Assembly (NCBI GenBank): GCA_964426185.1
Contig: CAYRPF010000080.1
Location: 1 to 13,560, forward strand
DNA length: 13,560 bases
Direction: 5' to 3'
DNA from: an uncultured archaeon
Lineage (GTDB): Archaea > Asgardarchaeota > Lokiarchaeia > Sigyniarchaeales > Promethearchaeaceae
Part shown: one piece after another, positions 69 through 8,728 of the stretch
Layout of the letters: each line of letters starts with the position of its first letter
Position numbering within the stretch: the first letter of the stretch is position 1
Position numbers and translations under genes: made by a program
Notes under the pieces: model-generated
Database searches by the model: none
The model's input: the letters and a program-made list of their open reading frames with translations, nothing else
What the model was told of the DNA's origin: nothing

Positions 69-1487
69 TTAAGTTAATTTTCCATCAGCTTGAAGTCGTT
101 CAAGAATCATAGATACTGCTTGATCTACCCCAACTTCTTCGGTTTCAATAGTTATTTCTGGATTGAGTGGTTCTTCATAGGGTGCAGATTCTGATACACC
201 CGTAAAATCAGAGATTTCTCCTGCAATTGCTTTTTTATATAATCCTTTTGGATCTCGCTGCTGACACGCTTCAACACTTGCTTTTACATAAATTTCATAA
301 AAATCGGTGTTTCCGATAGCAGAGCGTGCATCTGCTCGAATTTTGCGATAGGGACTTATAAAAGAAACTAAAATGATTACTCCTGCATCAAAAAAAAGTT
401 TGGACACTTCGATTATTCGACGCAGGTTCTCACTTCTTTCTTCTGGGGAAAATCCTAAATCTGCATTTAATCCATGTCGAATATTGTCTCCGTCTAATCT
501 ATAAACCAATTTTCCTTGATGGAATAATTCTTGTTCTAAGGCAACTGCAATTGTGGATTTACCTGAACCAGAAAGACCTGTAAACCACAAAACGAAATTT
601 TTTTGACCTAAAAGCGTTAATCTATCGAACCGATTGATTTTTCCTTCATGCCACTTTACATTTTTTGGGTGTTTTACATGTTCTGGATGCTCATGAAGTG
701 CATTTTGCATCGAATTCAGTACGTAAAAACCTTTATCATTGAGTGAATTTTCCCGATTATACAACATCTCAGAATTATCCATTTGTCGGAAAATCCCTCC
801 AGCTTCTTCTACAATGCACTGCATGGCGGCGGTATCCCATTCCATGGTATATCCAAACCGATAATAAATTTCCGCTTCACCTCTGGCAATTAGACAACCT
901 TTAAGTGAACTTCCTTTTGCAATTTCGTGTTTAATCTTGGATTGAAATGGGGCTAAAAGAGCTTCCAATTGTGGAGATTTATGAGATCGACTTTCCACAA
1001 TCACCAAATCGGTGGTTTTATCACTCACGTGCAATTTCCTGGGGGGGTCATTTTCAATTTCTAAGAAAGCCCCAAACCCTTTTGCCGCATAATAAAGTTC
1101 TTTTAGAACTGGTGCATAAATAATTCCCAAAATTACTTGGTGTTGGAAAGATAAGGCAATATTTACCGTAAATTCGTCGTTTCGTTTGATAAACTCTTTT
1201 GTTCCATCTAGTGGATCAACAATCCAGCAGAATTCATTTTCCAATCGCGATTTTTCATCCTTAGATTCTTCTGAAAGGATAGCATGGCTGGGAAAATGAG
1301 ACTGTAAATATGATACAATAATTTCATTTGCGGCCGTATCTGCTTGAGTGAGAGGTGATTGATCTGATTTCATCGAAATTTGCATGTCATCATTATAATA
1401 TTTTAAGATTTCAAGACCGGCTTGGATGGCAATTGGTTTTAAATTCTCGATAATTTTGGGTAGTTGTGTAAAAATAGGATTAACCAT
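69..1487 (-). CDS. cysQ-cysC: Fusion of 3'(2'),5'-bisphosphate nucleotidase (CysQ, inositol monophosphatase family; N-terminal ~260 aa) and adenylyl-sulfate kinase (CysC; C-terminal ~200 aa)
   Basis: N-half has IMPase/CysQ motifs: K-S-D-x-SPLTxAD, ILSEE, WIVDPLDGTKEF, EFTVNIAL, SRSH, GSSLK, EWDTAA. C-half has APS kinase motifs: NVKWH, WFTGLSGSGKST (P-loop), LDGDNIRHGLN, SFISPY, RDPKGLYKKA, FTGVS..PYEEP. One uninterrupted ORF with a His/Pro-rich linker. Confidence 0.93.
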   Translation of the reverse strand: MVNPIFTQLPKIIENLKPIAIQAGLEILKYYNDDMQISMKSDQSPLTQADTAANEIIVSYLQSHFPSHAILSEESKDEKSRLENEFCWIVDPLDGTKEFIKRNDEFTVNIALSFQHQVILGIIYAPVLKELYYAAKGFGAFLEIENDPPRKLHVSDKTTDLVIVESRSHKSPQLEALLAPFQSKIKHEIAKGSSLKGCLIARGEAEIYYRFGYTMEWDTAAMQCIVEEAGGIFRQMDNSEMLYNRENSLNDKGFYVLNSMQNALHEHPEHVKHPKNVKWHEGKINRFDRLTLLGQKNFVLWFTGLSGSGKSTIAVALEQELFHQGKLVYRLDGDNIRHGLNADLGFSPEERSENLRRIIEVSKLFFDAGVIILVSFISPYRKIRADARSAIGNTDFYEIYVKASVEACQQRDPKGLYKKAIAGEISDFTGVSESAPYEEPLNPEITIETEEVGVDQAVSMILERLQADGKLT

Positions 1488-2608: not shown

Positions 2609-2959
2609 ATGAATGAAACACCCCCCCTCCCATCTTCTGTTGATTCTAATCAGAATACTGTAGCAAGTCCATTTACGGGCACCTTATACCGCTTTGAAGT
2701 GAATCGTTGGATCAAAACAAATGACTTTCAACCTTCAGATGTAGTTGTTGTCTTGGATGAACTTCAAAATAGGTTGTACTATTATGAAGGAAACGAAACA
2801 TCCGCTCAAGATCATCAAAGTGCAAAAACAAATCTTATTCGGTTTCAAAATTCCTATCCTGATCTAACAATAATTCGAATTGAATCCCTTCAATCTAAGC
2901 AAAAAAGAAAGATCCCAATCGAAGTTCTTACCTATCTGAATTCACACCAGAAACGTTAA
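2609..2959 (+). CDS. Single-domain gelsolin/villin-like protein (putative actin regulator)
   Basis: LYRF...DFQPSDVVVVLDELQNRLYYYEGNETSAQDHQSAK follows the gelsolin-repeat pattern (L-n-s-x-D-hydrophobic-LD....iy-x-W-x-G..ss..E...A). GAGGA upstream of the ATG. Confidence 0.62.
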   Translation: MNETPPLPSSVDSNQNTVASPFTGTLYRFEVNRWIKTNDFQPSDVVVVLDELQNRLYYYEGNETSAQDHQSAKTNLIRFQNSYPDLTIIRIESLQSKQKRKIPIEVLTYLNSHQKR

Positions 2960-3080: not shown

Positions 3081-3126
3081 CTCTTAAATTGTTACTGATC
3101 ATTGCACATACTTGGAGAACGTGTTC

Positions 3127-4011
3127 ATGTTAATCTTAACATATTTTAATCCCATCATCGGTCCCGATATCCTATATAGTGTCCCTCCAGATCTAGAAAA
3201 GCTTATCACAGAAAAAGATCTTGGCCAAATAAAGCGGTTGATGGATACTGCTTCTCCTGGTTTTTTTACTCATGCTTTCTCTGCCAGCTTGAATACAGCC
3301 AATTATTTTTTTATGATTCCCTCGGACTGGGCTCGTGGAAAGCAAGAGATGGTGATGATTACCAAAATTATCGAAGAAGAATCACCTAATCTAAAAGCAT
3401 ACGCCCAAAGGTTTCAGGAATTTGCCCAAGAGCTAAAACAAAATCAAAAATCTATTTTTAAAGCATTATATATTAATAATCCACCGTTAAATTACGAAAA
3501 GGAAATATTCAATGAATTCAGATACCTCAAGATAAAATTCGAAGAATTGGCCAAATTTTTTGAGATTAGTCAAGTTCAAACCCACGGAATCCTACTACCT
3601 TTCCGAAAATTGGCAGAAGATCATGCCATTCACCTCCCATCCCAAATGGTTAAGGAACTTGAATCTTTTTTGGGGGAAAGAGAGAATTATTTTGTGGTGT
3701 TTCAACGGAGAAAAGATTCTTTCAAAGTAGACATTCTACCCCATGAAGGCAATCAAGTGGTGAAGTTTGCGGTATTATTCAACGGAACATTAAGTCCGGA
3801 AACCCTCAAGCAAATTGGTTTAGTTTTTCAAGAACTGGGACTTCCCTTTGTGTATACTTCAGGAATTTGCCAAAAAGGCGGTCAATGTATCTATGAAGTA
3901 TACTTAAACCCTAAGGAGATGAAAGATTTTGAAGCCACAAAACAACAGTTGCTGAAAATTGAGCAAGTAGATGAAGTCAAAATTATCGACATTGAACTTC
4001 TGTTAACATAA
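3127..4011 (+). CDS. Longin/uDENN-like (folliculin/NPRL2/SMCR8-type) N-terminal domain, possible AbrB-like swapped hairpin, C-terminal ACT-like domain
   Basis: N-terminal LILTYFNPIIGPDILYSVP resembles the NPRL2-type F-x-P-x-x-GP-x-I-x-x-x-VP start. FMIPSDWARGKQ resembles the folliculin [12 protein letters not shown] segment. The last ~85 aa have a beta-alpha-beta-beta-alpha-beta ACT pattern ending LLKIEQVDEVKI. ATG at 3127 with GGAG upstream is preferred; TTG at 3112 is the alternative. Confidence 0.7.
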   Translation: MLILTYFNPIIGPDILYSVPPDLEKLITEKDLGQIKRLMDTASPGFFTHAFSASLNTANYFFMIPSDWARGKQEMVMITKIIEEESPNLKAYAQRFQEFAQELKQNQKSIFKALYINNPPLNYEKEIFNEFRYLKIKFEELAKFFEISQVQTHGILLPFRKLAEDHAIHLPSQMVKELESFLGERENYFVVFQRRKDSFKVDILPHEGNQVVKFAVLFNGTLSPETLKQIGLVFQELGLPFVYTSGICQKGGQCIYEVYLNPKEMKDFEATKQQLLKIEQVDEVKIIDIELLLT

Positions 4012-4074: not shown

Positions 4075-5058
4075 TCATAGTAACGGTGTATTAAACAAAA
4101 GAAGCACCATAAAAGTTGCATAATCAATAAACAGAACAATCATTAGACTTCTCTCAAATTTGATGACCTTTACCAAGGAAATCCCGATGGCCAAGATAAT
4201 AGTTCCCCATGCTTGAAAAATCACCAAAAGAATGCGGGTAATTATCAAAAAAGTACTAGAATGCATTGAAAACAAACGTAGAATTCCAATACATAGTAAG
4301 TAAAAAACTAACGGAATATAACTGATAGACAAAACAGAGAGCAACCAACGCCAATTCTCTTTTTTTTTGAACAATCCACGCGCTAAAATTTCAACCAAGC
4401 CAACCAATAATGCATATCCCAAAAAAACACTTATGAATTGAATTATTGGATATCTAATTAAAATTGATTCCAATGGTTCGAAAATAGGGAGAAAAATATT
4501 GACAAAGGCTTGAACCCGTATAAGCATACTTAATCCCGCAATTAAGGTCAGATTCAGAACAGAAAAGCCAATTGAAGCATTATAGTTTGAAAAGTAAAAT
4601 TTAAATATTGGTTGCCCCAGCAACCATGCCTGCCAATTCTTTAACGGTCGATCCCACAAAGATCTTTGTGAGTTATCTGATAATTCTTGGAAATCACTGC
4701 CAGTTTGAAGCATGTTATATGCATGTTCACCTATTCGGGTAAAATAATACTTCTTTTGTTCATTTTGCTGTACTAAATCCTTTAATACATCGAGATGGTG
4801 ATAGACGGTACCAGTACTCACCTTTAACAGCCGCTTGATATCAGAAAATCCAGTTGAACCATTTTTTCCGATTAATTTGAGAATTTTTCTTCTGTATTCA
4901 TGCCCCAAAGCGACAAAGATTGCTTGTTCAAATTCTGATTCCGATTCTGAATCCAATTCTGAATTTGATTTTGATTCCAATTTAGAGCCTAATTCTGGTT
5001 TAGATTTAGATTCAGATTTAGACTTGTTGAATACTTTGTCGGGTTTAAGAATAGACAC
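4075..5058 (-). CDS. ArsR-like winged-HTH domain fused to a Yip1-like multi-pass membrane domain
   Basis: IFVALGHEYRRKILKLI...FSDIKRLLKVSTGTVYHHLDVL..LV......YYFTRIG is an archaeal ArsR/wHTH. The C-terminal ~190 aa has about 5 TM helices with Yip1-like patterns (ILARGLF....W..LLSVLSISYIP; W..IILAIGI......ERS). GTG start with AAGGAG SD. Confidence 0.8.
   Translation of the reverse strand: MSILKPDKVFNKSKSESKSKPELGSKLESKSNSELDSESESEFEQAIFVALGHEYRRKILKLIGKNGSTGFSDIKRLLKVSTGTVYHHLDVLKDLVQQNEQKKYYFTRIGEHAYNMLQTGSDFQELSDNSQRSLWDRPLKNWQAWLLGQPIFKFYFSNYNASIGFSVLNLTLIAGLSMLIRVQAFVNIFLPIFEPLESILIRYPIIQFISVFLGYALLVGLVEILARGLFKKKENWRWLLSVLSISYIPLVFYLLCIGILRLFSMHSSTFLIITRILLVIFQAWGTIILAIGISLVKVIKFERSLMIVLFIDYATFMVLLLFNTPLL
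4930..5025 (-). repeat. Degenerate 6-bp periodic tract encoding an (S-E/K/D/N)n low-complexity N-terminus of the wHTH-Yip1 protein
   Basis: Repeated GATTCT/GATTCC/AATTCT/GATTTA units encode SKSESKSKPELGSKLESKSNSELDSESESEFE. Confidence 0.7.
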
Positions 5059-5070
5059 TCTCTCCTTAAA

Positions 5071-5682
5071 TTAAATTTCACTGTTTGCATTTTGCGGGGG
5101 AATTAAATTCTGAGAATTTTCTGGTTGTTTATCTTCTTGATTTTCTCCGGGCTGAGATGAAGATGAAGTTGATGGGGGAGATAAAGGTGGAGATGATAGG
5201 GGAGTTGAAGGTGAATAGGAAGGCGAAGGGGAATTTATTTGTAAAAATCCAAGAAAACACCCTAAAAACAGAATCAACGCAGTAATAATCAGGTAAATTC
5301 CGGGCTGATTCCATAAATACGGTGTGTGATCTTGAAATATTTGGCTCAAAAAAAGTGTGGTCAAATTCAAATCCAAGAACAAAATCAAATAGAACCCTAA
5401 TTTTTGGGAATGTATAAATTTGGAAAGAAAAATCCCAAAAATTATCATTAATCCTCCGTTTATGAGAGGAATACTGTAAAGAAATCGCTCCCAGCCTTCA
5501 CCAACAACTTGGAACATCAATATCAGCGGAAAAAAGGAAGTCAAAGGAACTAACATAGATATCCACCATAAAATACCACTTCCTATAAACCATAAGCGTA
5601 ATTGAAGGATTAATTTTCCGTTTTTCCTTCTATTGGTTTTTTCCCCTATTTTTTTCGGTTCACCTGATCTCGATGGATTCAT
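5071..5682 (-). CDS. Hypothetical membrane protein (about 4 TM helices, basic N-terminus, Ser/Pro-rich disordered C-tail)
   Basis: Four hydrophobic stretches. Ends 12 nt before the wHTH-Yip1 start, so probably co-transcribed with it. Confidence 0.75.
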   Translation of the reverse strand: MNPSRSGEPKKIGEKTNRRKNGKLILQLRLWFIGSGILWWISMLVPLTSFFPLILMFQVVGEGWERFLYSIPLINGGLMIIFGIFLSKFIHSQKLGFYLILFLDLNLTTLFLSQIFQDHTPYLWNQPGIYLIITALILFLGCFLGFLQINSPSPSYSPSTPLSSPPLSPPSTSSSSQPGENQEDKQPENSQNLIPPQNANSEI

Positions 5683-5837: not shown

Positions 5838-6395
5838 ATGTCTAAACTAAGAAAACAGTATAAATTTAAAGTTCCATTATTTGGTTCTCAAAATGTGGGA
5901 AAAACTAGCCTTATCATTAGATTCATCAAGCAAACATTCTCCAGTGATTTAAAACAAACCATCGGAACAAATTTCTTGATCAAAGATGTGGAAGTTGATG
6001 GAAATGATGTGCGATTAATGCTTTGGGACATAGGAGGACAAGCTCAATTTTCATCCATGCGAAACATATATTTTAAAGGTTCTCAAGCAGCTATCGGCGT
6101 ATATGACATTACAACTCCAGAATCTCTTTTACGTCTTCCAGGTTGGATAAGTACTCTTAAAAAAGCGGCGGGAGAAATCCCTTTGGTCTTGATAGGTAAT
6201 AAAGTAGATTTAGAAGAAACAGATCGTCGGGTGGCACGATCGGATGCACAAGAACTAGCAGATCGTTTGAATGCAGTGCATTTAGAAACTTCTGCGAAGG
6301 ATGGGACGAATGTCGAGGAGATGTTTATGCAAGTAGCGCGTAAATGCTATGAACGTGCTTTAGAGATCGAGAAGGAACTGGAAGGAATAGAATAA
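5838..6395 (+). CDS. Rab-like small GTPase (Ras superfamily)
   Basis: G1 GSQNVGKTS, G2 QTIGTNF, G3 LWDIGGQ, Rab-like switch II FSSMRNIYFKGSQAAIGVYDIT, G4 GNKVD, G5 ETSAK. No C-terminal CC/CxC/CaaX motif. Confidence 0.95.
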   Translation: MSKLRKQYKFKVPLFGSQNVGKTSLIIRFIKQTFSSDLKQTIGTNFLIKDVEVDGNDVRLMLWDIGGQAQFSSMRNIYFKGSQAAIGVYDITTPESLLRLPGWISTLKKAAGEIPLVLIGNKVDLEETDRRVARSDAQELADRLNAVHLETSAKDGTNVEEMFMQVARKCYERALEIEKELEGIE

Positions 6396-7073: not shown

Positions 7074-8075
7074 ATGGAGGAAAATCGCCCGGCTGTAAGC
7101 GTTATTGGTGCTGGTGGATGGGGAACCACACTAGCGAATCTTTTGGCGATGAAAGGAATACCCGTGAAAATCTGGGCATATGAAGAAGAAACAGTTCGAA
7201 ATATTAATTATAAAAATGAAAACCCCCAATTTTTACCCAACATTCAACTTTCACCGCGAATATTTGCCTACACCGAATTGGAAAAAGTTATACCAAAGGC
7301 AGATATTTTGATTTTTGCCATTCCTTCAACATTTGTTCGCATGATGGCAGAAAAAATATCACCTTTATTTATTCCATCGAGGGAATACCGCTTGATTTCT
7401 GTTTCCAAAGGTTTGGAATATGAAACTTTCAAATTGATGTCAGAAATTTTACGTGAAATTTTACCGAAAAACGTCAAAATTGCCGCACTTTCAGGACCGA
7501 ATCTATCTAGGGAGGTAGCACTGGGTCAACCCACTGCCACTGTGATTGCTTCCATTCATGAAGAAATTCTACCAGATTTGGTAAATCTTTTTCATACTTC
7601 CACCTTCAAACCGTATGCTTTAACGGATGAACGCGGCATAGAAATCTGCGGAGCGGTGAAAAATATTACAGCAATTGCAGTGGGTATTTGTGATGGTTTG
7701 GGATTGGGAGATAATTCCAAAGCCAGTATTATTACTTTAGGATTGACCGAAATGAATAGAATAGGACAGCATTTTGGATGTGATCGTAAAACTTTTTTTG
7801 GAGTGGCTGGAGTGGGGGATTTAATCGCAACTTGCTCTTCAAAACTTTCGCGAAACCGAACCTATGGGCAAAAACTTGCCGAGGGAAAAACATTTGCAGA
7901 AATTAAAGAGGAAATGCATGGAATGGTGGCAGAAGGTGTTTGGGCGGCTAAATCAGTCCATCTTTTTGCCCAACAACATAATATTGAGCTGCCGTTAACC
8001 ACTCAAATCTACAAAATTTTGCACGAAAATAAACCGATGAAAGAGGCAATTTCCGATTTGCTTAATTTGATATAA
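7074..8075 (+). CDS. gpsA: NAD(P)H-dependent glycerol-3-phosphate dehydrogenase
   Basis: GAGGWGTTLA Rossmann motif, EN..FLP, SKGLE, LSGPNLSREV, GIEICGAVKN, GLGDN.KA.IIT.GL.E, G.AGVGDLIATC.S..SRN, VAEGV. Confidence 0.96.
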   Translation: MEENRPAVSVIGAGGWGTTLANLLAMKGIPVKIWAYEEETVRNINYKNENPQFLPNIQLSPRIFAYTELEKVIPKADILIFAIPSTFVRMMAEKISPLFIPSREYRLISVSKGLEYETFKLMSEILREILPKNVKIAALSGPNLSREVALGQPTATVIASIHEEILPDLVNLFHTSTFKPYALTDERGIEICGAVKNITAIAVGICDGLGLGDNSKASIITLGLTEMNRIGQHFGCDRKTFFGVAGVGDLIATCSSKLSRNRTYGQKLAEGKTFAEIKEEMHGMVAEGVWAAKSVHLFAQQHNIELPLTTQIYKILHENKPMKEAISDLLNLI

Positions 8076-8095: not shown

Positions 8096-8728
8096 ATGGA
8101 AGAATCGAAAATAATAGATCAGTTGGATGCGATATTTACGGAAATTCGTGCCTATTACGAGCAAATGGATAAAATTCGAGAAAAAATTCTGCCTTTACAG
8201 CGAAAAACTGTTCGGATGTGCAGTGAAATTATCAAACAAGTCCACAGGCATGAACATGAAAACATACCTTCAAAGATCGATCAGATAAAAAATCACCTCT
8301 CCCAAATGACAAGCCTAATTTCACAAGCACCCGGTATATTTCCCAAAGATTACGTTCAAATTGTTAAACAAGAAACAGGGGAAGCAATAATTTTTTACCA
8401 TATCGTTGTTCATCATTCCCTTCCAACCCCTAAAGAGTGTAACATCGAACTGGAGGATTTTGCCTATGCTTGCGCCGATGTTGTTGGAGAGATCCGCCGA
8501 TATATTTTACGATGTTTAAGAGAAGAAGACTTAACCCAAGCTTCGCATTTATTAGAGATCATGACCGAATTGTACAACTATTTATTCACATTAGACTATC
8601 CAAATGGATTAATTCCAGGATTGAGAAAAAAAATAGATGCGGCTCGTGGGATTTTGGCCCGAACTGAAGCGGATATCACCTTATCTCTCCAAATGCACCG
8701 CTTACATCATGATTTAAATTCTGCTTGA
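8096..8728 (+). CDS. Translin/TRAX (C3PO) family RNA-binding protein / endoribonuclease
   Basis: All-helical. REKIL...R...R, QETGEA, ADVVGEIRR and GLRKKID match archaeal translin-like proteins. AAGGAGG/GAGG upstream; 20 nt after the gpsA stop. Confidence 0.88.
   Translation: MEESKIIDQLDAIFTEIRAYYEQMDKIREKILPLQRKTVRMCSEIIKQVHRHEHENIPSKIDQIKNHLSQMTSLISQAPGIFPKDYVQIVKQETGEAIIFYHIVVHHSLPTPKECNIELEDFAYACADVVGEIRRYILRCLREEDLTQASHLLEIMTELYNYLFTLDYPNGLIPGLRKKIDAARGILARTEADITLSLQMHRLHHDLNSA

Follow-up and report, generated by a model that had tools for sequence, protein, structure and literature searches.

The window analysed here, a 13,560-nucleotide stretch that makes up a complete contig of a Lokiarchaeal genome of 3.26 Mb, carries at positions 3127..4011 (+ strand) an ORF for a 294-amino-acid protein in which a longin domain is followed by an AbrB-like segment and an ACT-like domain. 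By analogy with the eukaryotic longin GAPs, we favor, by a modest degree, the reading that this protein is a GAP that would supply an arginine finger from its longin domain and carry a built-in regulatory module. The longin class to which it belongs has already been described for Asgard archaea in the text of PMC12290439. The AbrB/ACT module is the unusual part of the protein and was missed by the initial annotation, which ended the feature at 3560. The host is an Asgard archaeon, a close relative of eukaryotes, and in our own cells this class of longin switches off small GTPases.

Read from the ATG at 3127, codon 3334-3336 is CGT and encodes Arg70, where the initial annotation had placed the arginine, and both peptides quoted there are in frame with this start. 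An in-frame TTG at 3112 would add five residues, but homologues begin at the ATG. Its homologues in the two cultured Lokiarchaea, NEF87_004254 of Ca. Lokiarchaeum ossiferum (67% identity) and DSAG12_01826 of Promethearchaeum syntrophicum (63%), are both annotated as hypothetical and mark the host as a Lokiarchaeon. Protein and profile searches against the PDB, Pfam, and NCBIfam gave no significant match, and promoter and terminator scans remained at chance level.

The AlphaFold2 model of the 294-residue protein (mean pLDDT 81.5) contains, at residues 1-148 (3127..3570, +), a five-strand, three-helix longin domain of the FLCN/NPRL2/SMCR8 type. In VIA-align, the best match was FLCN (8dhb_J; Z 13.0, rmsd 2.9 over 136 residues), followed by NPRL2 (Z 11.8, rmsd 2.7 over 129 residues), with lower scores for Lst4 (Z 10.2), C9orf72 (10.1), AP2 sigma (9.5), and SMCR8 (9.4). 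Foldseek, used with the same model, ranked GATOR1 chains first. The longin fold anticipated from the sequence, and its likeness to known GAP longins, are therefore borne out. A specifically folliculin-like identity did not survive: FLCN and NPRL2 lie within about one Z unit of each other, the motif spacing is that of NPRL2, and the protein is not folliculin, SMCR8, or a DENN protein because it has no DENN module. The 294 residues lack the DENN core and so depart from the tripartite layout of Rab GEFs (longin, DENN core, and dDENN). Two observations count against a GAP assignment: a Lokiarchaeal roadblock-longin protein scores nearly as high in the structural comparison (Z 11.5), and sequence similarity to the eukaryotic GAP longins falls below significance in profile searches of the PDB and Pfam. 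The Pfam Folliculin model matched two places in the whole genome, both below its cut-off (E 0.001 and 0.0025); each is an ARG-bearing longin paralogue that is also found weakly by our own profile. The Pfam NPR2 model found nothing in the genome. Feature searches of the ESM Atlas all scored below 0.9 and provide leads only, among them a cluster with 19% NPR2.

Where strand 2 begins, the domain carries a GP motif (Gly12-Pro13; 3160..3165, +), which is given in the text of PMC12290439 as a mark of GAP longins; in 93 relatives, Gly12 is invariant and Pro13 is found in at least 90%. The candidate arginine finger, Arg70 (3334..3336, +), lies in the model on an exposed hairpin loop that joins strand 4 (residues 56-65) to strand 5 (residues 73-82). 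No residue is more conserved: all 93 aligned longins have it, as do all 36 full-length relatives, at identities down to 19%. The offset from the GP motif to the arginine is 58 residues both here (Gly12-Arg70) and in NPRL2 (Gly20-Arg78), and the structural alignment begins with this same shift of 8 between the two chains. The equivalence of Arg70 to the eukaryotic finger arginines, as the model suggests it, is drawn from topology and register. The eukaryotic motifs given in the initial annotation proved correct against PDB sequences (FLCN 156-175 with Arg164; SMCR8 140-160 with Arg147; NPRL2 10-41), as did NPRL2 68-88 with Arg78. Its gapless alignment of the FLCN "ARG" segment held in part. The best register of the FLCN 20-mer on the 93-sequence longin profile does put Arg on Arg, but the score of 3.7 bits was reached by 484 of 5000 shuffles and by 21% of random 20-mers and is not significant alone. 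The N-terminal 20-mer of NPRL2 scored 30.7 bits (0/5000 shuffles and 7/20000 random 20-mers), statistics that are optimistic because this peptide was preselected by a PDB search. The FLCN motif is weak as sequence. The case for a GAP longin rests on fold, position, and conservation and not on three letters. On that footing, the claim of an intact, conserved finger arginine stands: Arg70 is invariant, in an exposed loop, and at the finger position of GAP longins.

The arginine longin is a mobile domain that occurs several times in a genome. Among 78 longer relatives, 32 (about 40%) have an Arf/Rag-like GTPase domain, 16 a PAS domain, 7 a histidine-kinase ATPase (HATPase), and 3 a V4R domain; the longin is also N-terminal in winged-helix-like and repeat proteins. 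Nearly all longin-GTPase fusions keep the arginine. Fusions to Rag/Arf-like GTPases, exemplified by L116:1981-3399 (= G000 C24:32480-33898, - strand), L107:794-1780, and L039:11390-12352, are natural cis pairs and would be simpler still to assay than the protein described here, which is itself small and soluble, has orthologues in the two cultured Lokiarchaea, and comes with few candidate substrates. The full fusion with the AbrB/ACT module was found in 42 of 161 Lokiarchaeia genomes: it is present in 13 of 14 genomes of the host family, is patchy in the next family, and was not found in two large genera (0/54 and 0/42). A phylum-wide tally gave matches in 198 of 251 genomes; this figure was rejected as the range of the longin because most matches outside Lokiarchaeia are to the stand-alone AbrB/ACT module. 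In the longin tree, ACT fusions fall into three groups on an unresolved backbone, which fits one origin of the fusion as well as several. At L108:1689-2681 (- strand; G283), the fusion gene is split into two frames, one for the longin and one for the ACT part, by either a frameshift or an assembly error.

A Rab-like small GTPase of 185 amino acids (Pfam Ras E 1.3e-47) is encoded at 5838..6395 (+), with intact G motifs, Gln68 in switch II, and no C-terminal Cys. It starts 1827 bases after the end of the longin ORF, in agreement with the initial annotation, which had noted a potential substrate about 1.8 kb downstream; this neighbor is, however, conserved only in the host family and is replaced elsewhere by other paralogues or by none. 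Of the 13 family genomes that carry the fusion, 4 have the orthologue of this GTPase as the adjacent gene on the same strand, 8 have it at a distance of two genes, and in 1 it lies about 10 kb off. It is thus close to the fusion gene in 12 of the 13, and the surrounding neighborhood is largely conserved in the family. In one genus, four genomes have a different Rab-like paralogue next door (grouping with C12:22105 at a tree support of 0.99), two distant relatives have a third Rab-like paralogue 9-13 bases upstream, and two genomes of another family have an adjacent divergent Arf/Rag-like gene. Nineteen other genomes have no adjacent GTPase, and in 13 of these an Arf/Rag-like fusion lies 2.5-7 kb upstream. 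Counted over nine distinct gene contexts, which we grouped ourselves and which are not fully independent, a small GTPase gene is adjacent in four, compared with the 3.9% expected for genes picked at random from this genome (rough P 2.5e-4); three of the four adjacencies are on the same strand and involve three different Rab-like paralogues. A single fixed cognate GTPase was rejected because the neighboring paralogue differs between lineages. A connection with small GTPases as a group is well supported, and the 5838-6395 protein as the partner is a fair first guess: as other lineages pair the gene with different paralogues or none, it is a candidate substrate and not a fixed partner. Its orthologue occurs in 132 of 161 genomes, including genomes without the fusion and the two large genera that lack it. 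Co-folding of two longin copies with this GTPase, GTP, and Mg scored 0.01 against a mark of 0.32, a result that weighs neither way.

Two genes on the opposite strand (4075..5682, -) separate the longin gene from the GTPase and are elsewhere or absent in four relatives. One (4075-5058, -) encodes an ArsR-like winged helix with a multi-pass membrane domain and is conserved in the family; the other encodes a small membrane protein. Upstream, a single gelsolin-like domain is encoded at 2609..2959 (+; villin E 6.9e-9, 7c2f E 1.6e-5) by a neighbor that is conserved in the family and that has a C-terminal membrane-spanning part in several relatives. Farther away in the window, the gene at 69-1487 (-) looks, by motifs only, like a fusion of a CysQ-type phosphatase and an adenylylsulfate kinase, 7074-8075 (+) has motifs of a glycerol-3-phosphate dehydrogenase-like gene, and 8096-8728 (+) is a translin-family gene (Pfam E 1e-9). 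At L033 and L111 (G005), about 10 kb of toxin-antitoxin-like and mobile-looking genes lie between the longin gene and its usual neighbors. In the neighboring family (L055-L060, L096-L109), the fusion gene is flanked on one side by a ribbon-helix-helix gene and on the other by a conserved gene of 410-440 amino acids that has no annotation, with an Arf-like GTPase fusion and a V4R protein close by.

From the fold, motifs, conservation, domain layout, and neighborhoods computed here, we infer a scheme for the dimer, GTPase binding, catalysis, substrate, and ligand. The N-terminal longin would be half of a longin pair, formed as a homodimer or with an arginine-less longin as the other half, which would cup a small GTPase at switch I and II. 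Like FLCN Arg164, NPRL2 Arg78, and SMCR8 Arg147, Arg70 would be put next to the γ-phosphate; there it would stabilize the transition state. The substrate would most likely be one or several Rab-like GTPases, and we tentatively put the 5838-6395 protein forward as the first candidate. The C-terminal module, seemingly taken from an archaeal regulator family, would set activity or location. The GAP reading is favored by the catalytic subunits FLCN and NPRL2 as top structural matches, by the direct fusions to GTPases, by the adjacency of GTPase genes, and by the invariance of Arg70. In the eukaryotic longin GAPs, two longins form the cup for the GTPase and one gives the arginine, and all three (FLCN, NPRL2, and SMCR8) need a second, different longin subunit (PMC8213707, PMC9473554). 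That no such second subunit was found here argues against a GAP. AbrB and ACT domains usually form dimers, and the Lokiarchaeal longin structure 8yqg is a dimer, so the second longin may be another copy of the same protein. The genome also contains WD-type longin-like ORFs (G000 C78:50-439 = L119:50-439, - strand; C20:703-1851, C77:5528-6766, C34:28441-29574, C51:14295-15215, and C4:38734-40008) with a C9orf72-like W-D-x3-G(P) start. The arginine is missing in the two that were read fully over that loop, and by sequence such arginine-less ORFs are candidate non-catalytic partner subunits. Also weighing against a GAP are the change of neighboring GTPase by lineage and the occurrence of its orthologue in two genera without the fusion.

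The position of the arginine longin N-terminal to PAS and histidine-kinase domains suits an input that reads a GTPase as well as it suits an enzyme. The longin might accordingly act as an effector or sensor that binds a GTP-loaded GTPase, with Arg70 reading the γ-phosphate but hardly accelerating hydrolysis and the signal passing to the C-terminal module or to partners. The same position in V4R, winged-helix-like, and repeat proteins, the many fusions to two-component domains reported in the text of Liu et al. (bioRxiv 10.1101/2020.10.19.343400), and the recurring GTPase neighbors, which suit binding equally, are consistent with such a role. We nevertheless consider it unlikely, since catalysis is the simpler role for an invariant arginine located where three proteins have a proven catalytic finger, and the direct GTPase fusions keep it. 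Less likely again is an exchange factor or plain scaffold, as most longin and DENN proteins are, in which the arginine would serve binding or structure. Most longin/roadblock dimers are GEF platforms (PMC10933270), one relative has a weak Afi1 match, and Mon1-Ccz1 is present among the Foldseek matches. These points are outweighed by the best Z scores to FLCN and NPRL2, by the lack of a DENN core, and by the combination of GP motif and arginine finger, which in the text of PMC12290439 marks the GAP subgroup and is missing in adaptins, TRAPP, and DENND.

Residues 149-294 are modeled at a pLDDT of 91.5. They comprise a degenerate AbrB/MazE-like segment (residues 149-206; 3571..3744, +) and an ACT/ferredoxin-like domain (residues 208-293; 3748..4005, +). 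The same genome encodes a canonical AbrB+ACT paralogue at C2:87872-88300 (PRK08577 match, E 1e-22), to which this half of the protein aligns over 121 columns (hhalign 80%, E 1.4e-5); by shape, it matches an AbrB+ACT cluster at a TM of 0.63. This homology, which runs throughout the C-terminal half, would fit a transcription regulator whose AbrB-like segment binds DNA under the control of a ligand via ACT and of a GTPase via the longin, and in one family (f2) a ribbon-helix-helix gene lies just upstream. Such a function is nonetheless improbable: the DNA-contact motif of AbrB (D-x-x-GR-x-x-IP type), which the canonical paralogue has, is found in 0 of 40 rows, with only a proline kept, and the AbrB-like segment is the least conserved part of the protein. 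In the structure search, no AbrB structure matched residues 149-206, which does not exclude the fold. As for the remaining alternative, that Arg70 is structural, its likeness to an arginine finger a coincidence, and the protein without any GTPase link, the FLCN 20-mer is indeed not significant alone and small GTPase genes are common here (55, with 8% of the genome within 2 kb of one), but this reading is highly implausible in view of the fold, the GP motif, the invariance of Arg70 and its place in a loop, the fusions to GTPases, and the recurring adjacency, which all agree.

The ACT-like domain scores Z 10-11.6 in a tie between ACT domains, the NikR C-domain, and ribosomal S6; a modeled fold tied with S6 points to no particular ligand. 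The fold is ACT-like; Pfam ACT was matched in 1 of 40 sequences (E 0.065), and NikR_C was matched in 1 of 40 (E 1e-3). A G-x-C-x5-C hairpin (Gly246, Cys248, Cys254), followed by Glu257 (3862..3888, +), is conserved and is a candidate metal, redox, or ligand site. The NikR fold scores Z 11.4, and its nickel site (His/His/Cys) is on the strand 2-3 hairpin, which may be the equivalent of this hairpin; here there are two Cys and no conserved His. Both Cys residues are present in 87 of 91 fusion sequences, and three of the four exceptions are fragments or have unusual spacing. The Cys-bearing hairpin is also found in stand-alone modules of other Asgard classes. Such AbrB/ACT-derived modules (L120-L133) occur in up to five copies per genome: this genome has three (G000 C71:7392-7850, C50:5126-5575, and C30:9908-10378), and five test genomes from other Asgard families have between one and five each. 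No Pfam or NCBIfam family covers this stand-alone Cys-bearing module, which recurs across Asgard families. In three genomes, the gene of an arginine-longin protein of 425-441 amino acids is immediately followed by a stand-alone AbrB/ACT gene (L044:2687-4457, L045:6406-8113, and L050:7025-8747); in other genomes, the two are found in one block at a distance of about 2-3 kb. This split form, with its adjacent genes, supports a working link between longin and AbrB/ACT.

Returning to the favored GAP, the AbrB/ACT module may oligomerize the protein and tune it in response to a metal, a small ligand, or the oxidation or reduction of the Cys pair, a suggestion that we regard as plausible but short of probable. 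A stronger version, a ligand-gated single-chain GAP in which a metabolite, metal, or redox state perceived by the Cys-bearing ACT module would control an arginine-finger longin that turns off a Rab-like GTPase, is doubtful; if true, it would be an archaeal one-protein version of eukaryotic sensor-to-GATOR1 logic. Whether longin GAP chemistry, which is central to mTORC1 nutrient signaling and lysosome control, predates eukaryotes is a question raised in the text of PMC12290439. The known domain class caps the surprise of the present protein; its fused sensor-like module would show in addition what controls such a GAP, and GAP activity, if true, would be the first measured for the longin family outside eukaryotes. 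In the searchable texts of the literature, we found no paper on a longin-AbrB/ACT fusion, none reporting a measured GAP activity of an Asgard longin, none naming the cultured orthologues DSAG12_01826 and NEF87_004254, and none joining Asgard, longin, and ACT domain. Matching Asgard GTPases to their regulators by gene order has been called difficult (PMC10933270).

Among characterized proteins, FLCN, the GAP for RagC/D with Arg164, is the best structural match (Z 12.2-13.0) and has the ARG loop in common with the protein described here. SMCR8, a GAP for Arf with Arg147, shares the loop at a structural score of only Z 9.4 and has some, weak activity on Rab8A (PMC8213707). FLCN and SMCR8 are 13-17% identical to the present protein, which differs from both in having no DENN module and no FNIP or C9orf72 partner found here. 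NPRL2/Npr2, the catalytic subunit of GATOR1/SEACIT and GAP for RagA/Gtr1 with Arg78, aligns at Z 11.8, with model residues 1-148 on chain residues 9-142 and a gapless N-terminal register. NPRL2 has its own C-terminal domains, which are absent here, where residues 149-294 are AbrB-like and ACT-like instead. NPRL2 needs NPRL3 and DEPDC5, and ACT-domain amino-acid sensors (CASTOR) are separate proteins that act via GATOR2. The archaeal AbrB+ACT proteins (NCBIfam NF006352, PRK08577) share the two-part layout over 121 columns, but here the DNA-contact motif is lost, the G-x-C-x5-C hairpin is present, and the module is fused behind a longin. The Asgard longin-GTPase fusions (Tran et al. 2024, PMC10933270) contain the same longin family, as in the 32 of 78 longer relatives above, whereas in the present case the GTPase has a gene of its own and the C terminus is a sensor-like module. 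The closest counterparts are the Asgard "Folliculin/SMCR8-type" longins (Novak Vanclova, Jackson, Dacks 2025, PMC12290439) and the "NPRL2-like longins" of Liu et al. (bioRxiv 10.1101/2020.10.19.343400), for which GAP activity was proposed. By the descriptions in the text of these sources, the longin fold, GP motif, arrangement of the arginine, and Asgard host are shared with both. An AbrB/ACT fusion is mentioned in neither text. Arf-related or Rag-like substrates were proposed there, whereas the GTPases adjoining the present gene and its relatives are mostly Rab-like. Compared by description, the feature that defines the class in the text of PMC12290439, an Asgard longin with a GP motif and an arginine finger, is present here.
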